The position numbers and the translations under genes were made by a program. The notes beneath the pieces are model-generated. The model ran no database searches. It was not told where the DNA came from and worked only from the letters and a program-made list of their open reading frames with translations. From the sequence record NC_101835.1: 64,000 nucleotides of DNA, one strand, 5' to 3'. This DNA is from a phage. The first letter of the stretch is position 1. Each line of letters begins with the position of its first letter. Below are positions 36,362 through 39,576 of this stretch, in pieces.

Positions 36362-36463
36362 AAGCTTTACCCCTCAAAACAGTATAACAAAATAGCCCTC
36401 GTGTTAGAGGGCTAGTATCTCCGATTACTCTATTCTACCACATCTAATTAAGATTGGCAACAC

Positions 36464-37585
36464 TTAGATAAAACGCTTGAGCATAGAAGGTGATGAGATT
36501 GATGGAATCACACAAGGAAGTGCTACCTCCTCTTTCTCCAGGAAATTAATCGCAGAAGCTACACAGTCAGCCCAGTCGTCTTTTCTGTTAAATGTTGATC
36601 TTTCCCCGTTGAATTTTTCAAGTTCGGTCAGAAATGCTTCCAGAGTATCAGGATGGAAACTGGATTTTACAATCCTTACCATTCCTTGTTGGGCAAGATT
36701 GGCAAAAGGTGAGAACCTTGTCAGTTTAGACTTGTTGGAAGGCATTGGGTCTTCTTCAACCCTAAACCCTTCGGCAAGCAAGGATCTGGAGGAGGTTAAG
36801 AACTCACTCTTACCTGCCTGACCGGGGTCCACAGAGAATACGATTATACAATCATCACCATCAAACTGCGCCTGTTTCCTGATGATCACATCTCGTTCAC
36901 CAGCCTTTTTACAGAACTTACCTTCCAGACCTGTGGAATACCTCCCGTTATCCACGTTCTCAGGACAATAATCACCGGACAGGTAATAAAAACCGTCGCT
37001 ATCTTTACTTACCTTAATACTGGCAGTAAAGTCAGGAAATTTATTACCGGAAGTTCTCTCGGTTCCTGCCTTATCCCATGCCCTGCAAGATACTGACCCA
37101 AGAGGTACTCTATCGGCATCACGAAGGAAAGATCTTTGAAAATAGTTTGCACCCTCAGGCTTTGCAAACCAGTTACCATGGAGAAGCTGAGCTTTTTCCA
37201 GCTCTGGTAGACCTTCGAGGAAAGCAAGGTATTCTGGGTTGTCTCTCAAACAGACAGGATTATCGAATATTGTTGCGCCTATGAACGAGAATGACAACGG
37301 TCTTGGCTTGATCTCTACGCCAAGTCCGTTAACCGTGGTGTATTTCTCTATCAACTCTTCTTTAGAGTCTCCCCAGATAAATTCACCGTCGCGTCGGATA
37401 AAATATCTTTTCTTACCGCATTTCTCCGGATCTGGATACCCTTCATCGTCCAACCACCATCTAACCAGTTTGGCAAGCATGTGTTCTGAATCGGGGTTAC
37501 AGCTGATAACCATTCTTGATGGATACTTTGACTGAGATCGCAGACGAGACATCAGATAGTCTATCTGCTCCCATTCGAATTGTGT
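36464..37585 (-). CDS. terminase large subunit, exon 2 (motif III and nuclease domain)
   Basis: Frame is open 33 nt upstream of the track ATG back to a TAA; contains RMVISCNPD (ATPase coupling motif) about 26 aa after the Walker B of exon 1 when joined; C-terminal Asp-rich nuclease-like region. Confidence 0.65.
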   Translation of the reverse strand, partial: TQFEWEQIDYLMSRLRSQSKYPSRMVISCNPDSEHMLAKLVRWWLDDEGYPDPEKCGKKRYFIRRDGEFIWGDSKEELIEKYTTVNGLGVEIKPRPLSFSFIGATIFDNPVCLRDNPEYLAFLEGLPELEKAQLLHGNWFAKPEGANYFQRSFLRDADRVPLGSVSCRAWDKAGTERTSGNKFPDFTASIKVSKDSDGFYYLSGDYCPENVDNGRYSTGLEGKFCKKAGERDVIIRKQAQFDGDDCIIVFSVDPGQAGKSEFLTSSRSLLAEGFRVEEDPMPSNKSKLTRFSPFANLAQQGMVRIVKSSFHPDTLEAFLTELEKFNGERSTFNRKDDWADCVASAINFLEKEEVALPCVIPSISSPSMLKRFI

Positions 37586-38468
37586 CGTTTATGTTCGGGC
37601 AAGGTCGCTAGTCTTGCCCCGCCATTTTCAGGCAGCTGCATGTCTCCATGCAGACCAGACTATATCTTATGAATGTGTAAATACTCTGCCGCTCTAAGAA
37701 TAGTTTCCTCATCCTCTTGGAAGAAACCTAAAGCTCTGTTGCATTTATCACAAAGCAACCCTCTTACAGCACCAGTTTTATGGTCATGATCAACACAAAA
37801 GAAATCTCTATACCCTTGCGTCCTATACTCATCAAGGGATATTCTACAAATGGCACACTTATGATCTTGATCTGAGAGTAGACGATAGTATTCATCTTTT
37901 GTTATGTGAAATTTCTTCTCAATCTGATAAAACTTTTCACACATCTTACACCTGTTCGTAACCAGATATACTTTACCATAGTCACGTTTTGTGTAAAAAC
38001 TATCAGCGAGCATACTTTCATGACAAGATTTGCATTCAAAAAGTTCACCTTTCTTCAGCAAGTCTTGAATAAACAATGCTGCGTCATCTCTCTTAACCAT
38101 ATTTTTGTTTTTACGAGATCCACCCTTCCTGTAGTACATATAGCATTCCTTGCATGTACCTGAGTATCCATCCTTGCTCTTAGATGATAAAAAGAAATCA
38201 TCAATAGGTAGAACTCTTTGGCAATCCATACATTTTTTAGTATTACACATTCACCCTCCCGTTTCGAATCGCTTGATTCTACGTCTTTCGACTAGTCGTT
38301 GAACGTTCATCCTCTCGGATGCTTCGCTGCGGATTATCTAAATTAACACACTGTTACCATACCTTCGATCTCTCTTCGAAGCCTCTGTCATGTTACCATG
38401 GCAGGTTGGTGGTGTCAATAATAAAGATTTCCCCGCAATTAGGGAGGTTTTACGAGAGCTACAAATTA
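37586..38468 (-). mobile_element. group I intron interrupting the terminase large subunit gene
   Basis: Minus strand carries all four core elements in canonical order: P AATTGCGGGGAAA (38428-38440), Q AATCCGCAGC (38326-38335), R GTTCAACGACTAG (38290-38306), S AAGATATAGTCTGG (37655-37668), then a P9-like hairpin GGGCAAG..CTTGCCC. Exon 1 ends in U, intron ends in G. Exact splice sites inferred. Confidence 0.75.
37660..38250 (-). CDS. intron-encoded homing endonuclease (endonuclease VII / His-Cys type)
   Basis: 196 aa in the P8 position between R and S; C-terminal DHDHKTGAVRGLLCDKCNRALG matches the T4 endo VII signature; several CxxC pairs; GGGAGGG RBS; stop codon lies inside the S element. Confidence 0.7.
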   Translation of the reverse strand: MCNTKKCMDCQRVLPIDDFFLSSKSKDGYSGTCKECYMYYRKGGSRKNKNMVKRDDAALFIQDLLKKGELFECKSCHESMLADSFYTKRDYGKVYLVTNRCKMCEKFYQIEKKFHITKDEYYRLLSDQDHKCAICRISLDEYRTQGYRDFFCVDHDHKTGAVRGLLCDKCNRALGFFQEDEETILRAAEYLHIHKI

Positions 38469-38894
38469 ACCCTCATCGAAGCAAACCATGGTGTACTCAA
38501 GCCCCTGATGGTTAAGCTTATCTTGTACATACTCCATATGGCAGTATTTTACAACAGCTCCCTTTTTGCTTCTATCCCACTTGCCAGTGTTCGGATCAAA
38601 CCGTGGAAAAATGAACTTATGATCCTTCTCTCTGAACTTTGGCTTAATGTTTTCAGGCAGATCACTATAAATAGCTACTGCTTTAGGCCATAGTCCACCC
38701 TCACCTTCCAACTGTGGGGTTGTTCTTCGGAACATAACCACAGAGCTGTGGGGGTCATCAATAATTTTAAGTGGCATCAACTGCAAGAGGAACGACTTGC
38801 CAGACCCTGCGGCACCGCCGATTACCAAAATATCTGCATCGTTTTCGAGGATCATCTTCTGCTTTTCAGAGCACGGTCCGTAAATCTTAGACAT
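38469..38894 (-). CDS. terminase large subunit, exon 1 (ATPase Walker A/B)
   Basis: Walker A GGAAGSGKS and Walker B MVCFDEG; frame is closed by a TAA immediately after the Walker B, which is where the intron begins. Confidence 0.7.
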
Positions 38895-39181
38895 TAACCT
38901 CTCTCCTTTGGAAAAAGTGTTCTAATATAGTCTTGCAAAATGATCAATTTAGCTCTATCATTGCTACAAGACAGATTATTATCCCTCATAATGCCAGAAT
39001 TTACTGCATCTGGCGCACCTTTCTTCAAAGGCATAGCTTTAGCAGGTGGTTTCATGGCACCTTCTGGGGGTTTAACAATCAACCTTCCTACATCTGGAGG
39101 GTCAATCTTGTATTCTTTCTCAACACTGGTTGCACACCCACATAATAACAAGCACACAATAAACAGTGTAGCAACTCTCAT
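38894..39181 (-). CDS. o-spanin (outer-membrane lipoprotein, Rz1-like)
   Basis: 95 aa; signal peptide with LLLCGC lipobox-like motif, Pro-rich mature part, C-terminal Cys; 4-nt overlap with the preceding gene. Confidence 0.55.
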   Translation of the reverse strand: MRVATLFIVCLLLCGCATSVEKEYKIDPPDVGRLIVKPPEGAMKPPAKAMPLKKGAPDAVNSGIMRDNNLSCSNDRAKLIILQDYIRTLFPKERG

Positions 39182-39576
39182 CGACCCTCCTGATTGATAC
39201 TCTCATTATAAATATCTATAAGCTGATCAGGGAGTGTTGACTTCTTACCCTCAGGGGATTGGAGGTAAATAATCTGCTTTTCTTTACCTGCCTTCTCAGC
39301 CATATTTAATTTATCCTGTAGGTCAGAAAGTGATTTTTCAAGGTTTTTAACCTCCTCTGCGTGGCCCATTTTAACTTTGTCGGCCTGCTTTTGTTGCTGA
39401 TCAAGGATCCGTTCCCACTTCAACTCTGTTGCTAACACACCTTCTTGGTAGGCTTCATTAAGCTTAGAGTTAAACCAATACACGGCCCCAAGATAAGCTG
39501 TACCTATCGCAGCTGCAAAAAATAAACCTTTTATGATCCCTTTATACCTACTCAGCCATGTTAAAACTGAAATCAT
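39178..39576 (-). CDS. i-spanin (inner-membrane, Rz-like)
   Basis: 132 aa; N-terminal TM helix GIIKGLFFAAAIGTAYLGAVYWF then coiled-coil periplasmic domain; overlaps the o-spanin start. Confidence 0.55.
   Translation of the reverse strand: MISVLTWLSRYKGIIKGLFFAAAIGTAYLGAVYWFNSKLNEAYQEGVLATELKWERILDQQQKQADKVKMGHAEEVKNLEKSLSDLQDKLNMAEKAGKEKQIIYLQSPEGKKSTLPDQLIDIYNESINQEGR

Follow-up and report, generated by a model that had tools for sequence, protein, structure and literature searches.

The large terminase subunit gene (TerL) of the phage genome examined here is very probably split by an 883-nt group I intron that carries a gene for an endonuclease VII (Endo VII)-type homing endonuclease. Four independent lines of evidence support the group I intron: an Rfam model, intron-less alleles in related phages, compensatory base changes and Pfam matches of the exons. 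All positions refer to the window, that is, the whole 64,000-nucleotide stretch of DNA that was analysed. The source phage is a Vequintavirus (rV5-like coliphage), and the feature is already known: it has been published for rV5, whose genome paper contains a section entitled 'Introns in terminase' (Kropinski et al., 2013; PMC3606486), and it is entered in GenBank as a joined CDS (NC_011041, MZ501060).

Organization of the interrupted terminase gene

Exon 1 (38469..38894, minus strand; 142 codons) was delimited by the list of open reading frames (ORFs), Pfam and the intron-less alleles, which continue at its end. It contains both the Walker A (GAAGSGKS) and the Walker B (MVCFDE) motifs and has the 3' end ...GAG GGU. 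As the original prediction had described, the corresponding ORF (38466..38894, minus strand) reads ...MVCFDEG and then ends at a TAA stop codon (38468-38466), and motif III and the nuclease part lie in a separate downstream ORF, called at 36464..37552 (minus strand), whose reading frame is open back to 37585. Exon 2 (36464..37585, minus strand; 373 codons and the stop codon) begins with ACA CAA UUC, codes for the remaining ATPase domain and an RNaseH-like nuclease domain, and is supported by Pfam and by its collinearity with uninterrupted TerL genes. Taken separately, the two halves matched Pfam Terminase_6N at profile positions 2-104 (exon 1, 25.6 bits) and 111-211 (exon 2, 31.7 bits), whereas the joined exons gave a single match over positions 2-211 (72.2 bits) as well as a Terminase_6C match (27 bits). 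The architecture of a T4-type large terminase, with Terminase_6N, Terminase_6C and a continuous ATPase domain, is present only after exon joining. Directly past the TerL stop codon, a pattern scan identified a hairpin resembling a terminator, with a T run behind it (36393..36414, minus strand); terminators are annotated at the equivalent place behind TerL in rV5, HdK5 and Murica.

The position of the intron (37586..38468, minus strand) was defined by comparison with four intron-less relatives: Alma, WM, MaxTheCat and Murica. Against Alma and WM the gap is exactly 883 nt (38468..37586), and in MaxTheCat and Murica TerL is annotated as a single uninterrupted CDS of 1,548 nt, which equals the 426 and 1,122 nt of the two exons in the window. 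The alignment of the joined exons to intact terminases, proposed as a check on the original prediction, also supported it: the spliced product of 515 aa differs by three residues from the uninterrupted TerL of intron-less relatives, and uninterrupted TerL genes of 35-69% identity align with it in one piece over the junction. The insertion site is right behind codon 142, between D-E-G and T-Q-F, and the exon junction in the spliced product is predicted to join GATGAGGGT to ACACAATTC. Taken alone, the alignment with intron-less alleles also permits a 1-nt shift (GG/...C/GACA) that gives an identical protein. In group I introns, a U precedes the 5' splice site and the last intron base is G. The originally predicted junction, with exon 1 ending in GAG GGU and exon 2 starting with ACA CAA UUC, equals the 883-nt gap and agrees with these rules, and was therefore chosen over the shifted one; the terminal intron base, which adjoins exon 2, is G37586.

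All intron-less alleles examined carry synonymous differences from the intron-bearing exons, namely C at -1, G at +3 and usually G at +6, and the intron-less junction reads ...GATGAGGGC ACGCAGTTC..., against GGT ACA in the joined exons of the window. Apart from these three junction changes, no co-conversion tract was discernible in the exons between the window and other alleles, since the exon differences were too few and too evenly spread. Alma was left out of this exon comparison, which is distorted beyond a 1-nt deletion in its record.

Structure of the intron RNA

The Rfam search suggested along with the original prediction returned a match to the group I intron model RF00028 on the minus strand (37636-38478; 50.3 bits, E 8e-10 in the whole 64-kb window), only 0.3 bits above the gathering score of 50. 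This marginal score is due to the ORF inserted in P8: a natural ORF-less allele of the same intron scored 84 bits (E 1.4e-20). The intron belongs to the group I family, with a catalytic core of P3-P9 and the P, Q, R and S elements above the Rfam threshold. These four elements had been recognized in the original prediction, and Rfam aligned them to consensus P4, P4', P7/P3' and P7', respectively; the P9-like hairpin reported with them was aligned to the last helix of RF00028.

The P1 guide pairing, which had been missed before, could now be identified. P1 (38454..38474, minus strand) is the first helix of the Rfam alignment, was read from the sequence and is invariant in nine natural variants. 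In this helix of 8 bp with an AUUUG loop, exon GAGGGU (38474-38469) and intron UA pair with UAGCUCUC (38461-38454), the core pairing being GAGGGU with GCUCUC. U38469 lies opposite G38459 in the wobble pair expected at a group I 5' splice site, and the boundary given by the intron-less alleles agrees with this site within 1 nt. The intron begins with UAA, an in-frame stop to exon 1. No P2 helix was found, the spacer between P1 and P3 being only GUAAAA and P2 being deleted in the Rfam alignment.

The remaining elements, all on the minus strand, follow in order. The P element AAUUGCGGGGAAA (38428..38440), the 5' strand of P4, aligned to the Rfam consensus AAUUGCGGgAAA, and the Q element AAUCCGCAGC (38326..38335), its 3' strand, was likewise placed by Rfam. 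Between them, a constrained fold gave P5 with a long P5a/P5b/P5c extension that includes GUAA-capped hairpins (38336..38427). The R element GUUCAACGACUAG (38292..38304, aligned to GUUCAaAGACUA) holds the P7 5' strand GACUA (38297-38293), and the S element AAGAUAUAGUCUGG (37655..37668, aligned to AAGAUAUAGUC) holds the P7 3' strand UAGUC (37662-37658); the two strands can pair in all nine variants, with G38297-C37658 as the candidate guanosine-binding pair of a P3/P7 pseudoknot, and never vary. The 3' strand of P3, GGGAGG (38255..38260), was assigned by Rfam and has its partner CCUCCC at 38447-38442. At the 3' end, P9 (37653-37636, GAGA loop), P9.1 (37635-37619) and P9.2 (37618-37598) together occupy 37598..37653, based on the terminal Rfam hairpin and the pair count.

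Between P7 and P3' lie two further hairpins (38266..38292), P7.1 (GUC-GAAA-GAC, 38292-38283) and P7.2 (GAAUC-AAGC-GAUUC, 38279-38266), in a region where the Rfam model is 29 nt shorter; both helices are paired in all nine variants without any change. Two such extra hairpins between P7 and P3' are characteristic of subgroup IA2 in the classification of Michel and Westhof (1990), and their presence makes the intron IA2-like.

The complete structure of 94 pairs was 100% paired in the nine natural variants, compared with 33-41% for slid-partner controls, a difference that is inflated because the fold was built on one member of the alignment. Six pairs were changed on both sides and none was broken; three compensatory pairs lie in the P5 region and occur in HMD-6, naswa and rV5. 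As P1, P3, P4, P6, P7 and P9 show no change in any of the variants available, covariation backs only P5a, P5b and P8; for the core, the evidence is the Rfam model. P10 is weak (3 bp, exon ACA with intron UGU at 38463-38461, one unpaired base from P1) and was excluded from the counted structure, since P10 and P1 compete for the same column.

The intron-encoded endonuclease

The intron contains a 196-aa ORF in the P8 loop (37660..38250, minus strand). The ORF starts within the 5' strand of P8 and ends with a TAG stop codon (37662-37660) in the 3' strand of P7, which bears out the earlier claim that the stop is embedded in the S element. At E <= 0.01, Pfam gave a single match, PF02945 Endonuclease_7 (E 2e-21); the ORF also matched PHROG 'endonuclease VII' families (E down to 3e-33) and, among PDB sequences, Hpy99I and T4 endonuclease VII. 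The catalytic and zinc-binding motif, defined as CX2-4C...DHDH...R...CX2C-N (PMC6083498), is complete: C132xxC135, D154-H155-D156-H157, R163 and C167xxC170-N171. Two further CxxC...CxxC pairs are present in the N-terminal half. Judged by its sequence, this protein is an Endonuclease VII/DHHRN-type homing endonuclease. Both its length and its Endo VII type had been correctly predicted. The additional label of His-Cys box (I-PpoI-type) enzyme found no such match and was rejected, only the Endonuclease_7 family being recovered; His-Cys box and Endo VII-motif enzymes are separate families (PMC6083498). The Endo VII-motif homologue of this protein in JES2013 has been assigned to an 'endonuclease clade' and called intron-encoded (Fang et al., 2018; PMC6083498).

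The sole Shine-Dalgarno-like sequence before the endonuclease start codon is GGGAGG, the 3' strand of P3. An internal promoter for the endonuclease was also considered and rejected: there is one sigma-70-like site at 38418-38390, and the count for the region (11 versus 7.2 +/- 2.4) was not above chance.

Distribution among relatives and alternative explanations

Examination of the same site in 111 related phage records revealed the intron with the ORF in 29, the intron without the ORF in 23 and no intron in 59. Among records listed by name, the ORF-bearing intron is 97.4-99.9% identical, which suggests recent spread or constraint; the DrSchubert intron, for example, shares 881 of 883 bases with that of the window. 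The 29 records with the ORF all come from sequenced phage isolates, and thus the interrupted gene must yield a working terminase. The window genome itself is identical to no record in the collection (best match 98.3% over 24 kb).

This presence/absence polymorphism is indirect evidence of mobility. The intron could be real and its endonuclease no longer an active homing enzyme, either decaying or serving another role such as RNA folding, so that the polymorphism reflects past mobility. The clean absence of the ORF from the 23 records is what would be expected late in a homing cycle, and the differences at -1, +3 and usually +6 mean that intron-less alleles may no longer be cleavable. However, the ORF in the window is not truncated, it preserves every catalytic and zinc-binding residue established in T4 endonuclease VII and F-CphI, and the high identity of the ORF-bearing introns also argues against decay. 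We therefore regard loss of homing activity as rather improbable.

It is very unlikely that TerL is truly split and unspliced, with an endonuclease gene inserted and the two halves translated separately and then reassembled. There is a precedent in Aeromonas phage Aeh1, where NrdA is split by mobE and the halves reassemble (as described in PMC7344957), and one intron-like insertion was reported as non-splicing in the CB7 paper (PMC7344957). A stop codon does end exon 1, an ATG at 37552 is in frame with exon 2, and the gene appears as two separate 'terminase large subunit' CDSs in several GenBank records. On the other hand, a complete group I ribozyme surrounds the ORF and is retained in ORF-less alleles, for which a free-standing insertion offers no explanation. 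Furthermore, no ribosome-binding sequence is suitably spaced ahead of the ATG at 37552, a start there would lose 11 conserved codons (TQFEWEQIDYL) present in intron-less alleles, and the break lies midway in a single ATPase domain model. The persistence of the ribozyme without the ORF, together with an exon 2 that has no usable start, led us to reject an unspliced split gene.

Least probable of all is that the intron is a splicing-dead relic and TerL a pseudogene in the window genome, as might be suggested by the low RF00028 score and by a private change, C38401, that makes a C-A mismatch in P5b (U-A in other variants). Against this reading, TerL has an essential function and a second terminase gene was not seen. 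The ribozyme core has the same sequence as in laboratory-propagated phages such as DrSchubert, the score is fully accounted for by the ORF insertion, and the mismatch lies in a peripheral hairpin.

Proposed splicing and mobility

With a spliced group I intron as the preferred reading, the whole TerL gene would be transcribed as a single pre-mRNA, and ribosomes on exon 1 would halt at the UAA at the very start of the intron. The intron is expected to fold into P1 and P3-P9.2, including P7.1 and P7.2 and without P2, and to remove itself by two guanosine-dependent transesterifications, the first predicted cut being behind U38469 (paired with G38459) and the second behind the terminal G37586. The joined exons would then form the mRNA for the 515-aa TerL, and we infer with good reason that DNA packaging depends on self-splicing. 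During mixed infection, the endonuclease is predicted to cleave terminase alleles that lack the intron, close to the site of insertion, and repair of the cut allele would copy the intron in (homing). Ribozyme folding and endonuclease translation should be mutually exclusive, because the ribosome-binding site is the P3 3' strand and the start codon lies in P8. Splicing, the activity and target of the endonuclease, and this interplay between folding and translation are thus predicted properties, and a literature search found no splicing or cleavage experiment for Vequintavirus or for the intron of the window.

An intron endonuclease of phage PhiPA3 has been reported as a weapon against a competing phage (PMC11620839). 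The enzyme described here might likewise act against co-infecting intron-less Vequintaviruses by cutting their essential terminase gene, and so be more than a selfish passenger, a speculative reading that we consider possible but unlikely. If it were true, the synonymous changes at -1, +3 and usually +6 in intron-less alleles would be cleavage-site resistance mutations; and if the P3 3' strand serves as the ribosome-binding site, each transcript would commit to either endonuclease translation or terminase splicing.

Comparison with known systems

Two 'terminase' ORFs and an intervening 'recombination endonuclease VII' in these genomes should be read as one gene and a mobile intron, and exact coordinates are useful for curation because many Vequintavirus records annotate the pieces as separate proteins. 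The terminase intron adds no new principle. It does offer a clean natural set of three allelic states (intron with endonuclease gene, intron alone, no intron), with a second, related intron nearby in some relatives, and it does so in a late gene that is essential to phages under consideration for biocontrol.

The gene, insertion site and ribozyme are shared with rV5 and other Vequintavirus. The arrangement of the window, endonuclease included, recurs unchanged in DrSchubert, nomo, JES2013 and others at 98-99.9% identity, and the intron core has 306 of 319 bases in common with the naswa type. In rV5, the intron at the same site is present but lacks the ORF, and a second intron, absent from the window, lies 317 nt further along the coding sequence and encodes an HNH endonuclease.

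Among better-known introns, T4 td and other IA2 phage introns resemble the window intron in the core and the element order. They likewise have P7.1 and P7.2 separating P7 from P3', open with a stop codon that is in frame with the upstream exon, and loop an endonuclease ORF out of a peripheral helix; the part from S to P9.2 is ~82% identical to the 3' part of td (blastn, td of T4-like phages). In contrast with td, the host gene is terminase rather than thymidylate synthase, P2 is absent, and the ORF lies in P8 and encodes an Endo VII-type enzyme, whereas the td ORF lies in P6a and encodes the GIY-YIG enzyme I-TevI.

The C-terminal Endo VII motif (CxxC, DHDH, R, CxxC-N) is common to the window enzyme and the F-CphI/DHHRN family. 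F-CphI is a free-standing cyanophage enzyme encoded beside an intron and its activity has been demonstrated, whereas the window enzyme is encoded within its intron, is known by sequence, and carries a further two zinc-ribbon-like modules (CxxC...CxxC) in the N-terminal half. Finally, TerL is also interrupted by an endonuclease-encoding group I intron in Lactobacillus phage LL-H and in Pectobacterium phage CB7, the likeness being in the gene and the kind of intron. In CB7, a member of the same subfamily, Vequintavirinae, whose terminase intron encodes an HNH rather than an Endo VII-type endonuclease, splicing has been proven by RT-PCR (PMC7344957).

Interruption of the terminase gene by a group I intron

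The window is derived from an rV5-like coliphage (Vequintavirus). Its closest genome over 24 kb was phage Gotham (98.3%), and no identical record was found in the phage collection. On the minus strand, an ORF of 142 residues (38894-38466) carried Walker A (GAAGSGKS) and Walker B (MVCFDE) of the terminase large subunit (TerL) and was ended by a TAA stop immediately 3' of ...DEG, and a second ORF (37552-36464), whose frame stayed open back to 37585, encoded the remainder of the ATPase domain together with the nuclease domain. Searched separately, the two pieces covered positions 2-104 and 111-211 of the 215-position Pfam model Terminase_6N (25.6 and 31.7 bits, respectively). Joining of the exons turned these half-matches into a single match (2-211, 72.2 bits), as would be expected if a group I intron splits the gene, which had been the original prediction.

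The predicted splice junction agreed with alleles lacking the intron (intron-less alleles). Phages Alma and WM, which have no intron here, aligned to the window with one gap of exactly 883 nt (38468..37586). MaxTheCat and Murica have an annotated uninterrupted TerL CDS of 1,548 nt, exactly the sum of 426 and 1,122 nt, and their product was collinear with the translation of the joined exons, differing in 3 of 515 residues. Remoter uninterrupted terminases (69% down to 35% identity) also gave an unbroken alignment through residue 142/143. Moving the boundary by one base (…GG / …C / GACA…) is equally compatible with the alignment alone and leaves the protein unchanged; the predicted junction was chosen by the group I end rules, being the only position with U as the last exon base and G as the last intron base.

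The sequence between the two ORFs is a group I intron. In a search of the whole 64-kb window against Rfam, the group I family RF00028 (gathering score 50) matched the minus strand at 37636-38478 (50.3 bits, E 8e-10) and was the only non-tRNA family at threshold. The four strings originally read as P, Q, R and S fell on consensus P (AAUUGCGGgAAA), Q (AAuCCGCAGC), R (GUUCAaAGACUA) and S (AAGAUAUAGUC) in the RF00028 alignment, and the P9-like hairpin (CUGCAUG-GAGA-CAUGCAG) on P9. The marginal score was due solely to the ∼590-nt ORF looped out of P8: the 319-nt ORF-less intron of phage naswa, identical to the window intron at 306 of 319 bases, scored 84 bits (E 1.4e-20).

Secondary structure of the intron

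The P1 guide pairing, which the first reading could not see, was identified here: GAGGGU at the exon end (38474-38469), continued by two intron bases, is complementary to UAGCUCUC (38461-38454), and U38469 stands opposite G38459, the defining wobble pair of the 5' splice site. P2 was absent. P3 was formed by CCUCCC (38447-38442) and GGGAGG (38260-38255), and P4-P6 agreed with the consensus, P5 having a long extension. Between P7 and the 3' strand of P3 were two small hairpins (GUC-GAAA-GAC and GAAUC-AAGC-GAUUC), which we take to be the P7.1 and P7.2 hairpins that subgroup IA2 should have. After S came P9, P9.1 and P9.2, and the intron terminated in ...AUAAACG.

The model of 94 pairs, including the P3/P7 pseudoknot, was placed on nine aligned natural variants, three of which carry the ORF and were stripped of its interior. 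Standard pairs were found in 846 of 846 cells (94 pairs in nine variants), compared with 33-41% when partners were slid by 1-3 columns, a comparison that favours the structure since it was derived from one of the aligned sequences. Six pairs were changed on both sides and none was broken: two in P5a, both in HMD-6 (U-A to C-G and A-U to G-C), one in P5b (C-G to U-A in naswa and rV5, U-G in HMD-6) and three in P8. The core helices were invariant in this closely related set, and thus the covariation bears on peripheral helices only. P8 was informative in that its stem sequences differed between ORF-bearing and ORF-less forms with pairing still in register. One base, C38401 (minus strand), was private to the window (T in all eight other variants) and turns a P5b U-A pair into a C-A mismatch, which is probably harmless at this peripheral position.

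The intron-encoded endonuclease

The 196-aa ORF within the intron (38250 to 37660, minus strand) matched Pfam Endonuclease_7 (E 2e-21), PHROG 'endonuclease VII' families and two PDB entries, Hpy99I (a ββα-Me restriction enzyme, E 1e-5) and T4 endonuclease VII (E 6e-4). It contained the complete motif of the F-CphI 'DHHRN' family (C132xxC135, D154-H-D-H157, R163, C167xxC170-N171), and two further CxxC pairs were present in its N-terminal half. On the basis of these matches and the motif, the label 'endonuclease VII-type' held, and the accompanying one, 'His-Cys box', was rejected.

The start codon lay in the 5' strand of P8, and the TAG stop fell within the 3' strand of P7. Upstream of the start, GGGAGG was the only sequence resembling a ribosome-binding site, and it doubles as the 3' strand of P3; thus, ribozyme folding and endonuclease translation would be mutually exclusive. 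A sigma-70-like promoter match (TTGACA, 17 nt, TG-n-TAACAT; 10/12) was also present within the P5 extension (38390-38418, minus strand), ∼140 nt 5' of the start codon; matches of this kind were no more numerous in the region than expected by chance.

Distribution of the intron and junction alleles

A 401-nt probe, made up of the intron in its ORF-less form and the exon sequence flanking it, had matches in 111 records: 29 had the intron with the ORF, 23 (including rV5 itself) had the intron without it, and 59 matched the exon flanks only and therefore have no intron at this site. About 18 MG0656xx records named 'Campylobacter phage' showed 98% identity to this region of an E. coli Vequintavirus; the one opened was marked UNVERIFIED and classified as Vequintavirus, and the host labels of these records look doubtful.

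The junction read GGC/ACG in all four intron-less alleles read and GGT/ACA in the window and 8 of 8 intron-bearing relatives. Relative to MaxTheCat and Murica, exon positions -1, +3 and +6 (A to G), which are 38469, 37583 and 37580 of the window (minus strand), were the sole differences within ±60 nt of the junction, all of them synonymous; +6 was G in three of the four intron-less alleles. Without T at -1, the U-G pair could not form. Judging from sequence, the differences at +3 and +6 could be co-conversion marks of homing or could reflect endonuclease resistance of intron-less alleles.

A second, related group I intron was observed in TerL of some relatives (rV5, HdK5 and WM), 317 nt further along the coding sequence (records L003:2232-3210, L005:1334-1558 and L006, the last being rV5). 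It is inserted within an Ile codon (AU/A), and its P9 hairpin is almost the same as the one in the first intron. In HdK5 it contains an ORF and is 979 nt long, and in WM it is ORF-less and about 268 nt long (RF00028, 92.7 bits); the rV5 copy codes for an HNH endonuclease. The corresponding site in the window, between 37269 and 37268 (minus strand), was empty.

Genomic neighbourhood

Related phages have homologs of the two ORFs immediately 5' of TerL (38894-39576, minus strand), annotated there as i-spanin and o-spanin. The o-spanin ORF terminates in overlap with the start codon of TerL (38894), and the lysis genes thus directly adjoin the packaging gene. Six clustered tRNA genes (Met, Thr, Ser, Tyr, Arg) occupied 40432-41156 (minus strand). 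The cluster included a 99-nt ARAGORN call, 'tRNA-???', with a four-base anticodon (atcc) at 40589-40687 (minus strand), to which the Rfam tRNA model gave only 35.5 bits.

Relation to known introns

The feature is already known in Vequintavirus. The rV5 genome paper, in a section entitled 'Introns in terminase', described TerL in three segments, one with a homing endonuclease, and credited D. Shub with help in placing the intron (PMC3606486); a three-piece join is annotated in RefSeq NC_011041. In BASEL phage DrSchubert (99.1% identity over the region), TerL is annotated as two joined pieces that enclose a 'putative homing endonuclease', and comparative genomics was used to set intron boundaries in that collection (PMC8594841). 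The Endo VII-motif protein of JES2013, which is 98.2% identical in the region, was listed as intron-encoded in the F-CphI paper (PMC6083498). We found no splicing experiment for Vequintavirus in the literature; splicing of the terminase intron of CB7, from the same subfamily, was shown by RT-PCR and sequencing (PMC7344957). The present analysis contributes exact coordinates, the pairing in P1, a secondary structure with support from covariation, a count of the three-state polymorphism and the synonymous differences specific to the junction.

Thus, the original observation is confirmed and its interpretation supported, barring the His-Cys box label, and packaging would depend on TerL splicing. 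Over its last ∼80 nt, the window intron showed ∼82% identity with the td intron of T4 at its 3' end. As a whole, the feature is a mobile group I intron of the textbook kind.
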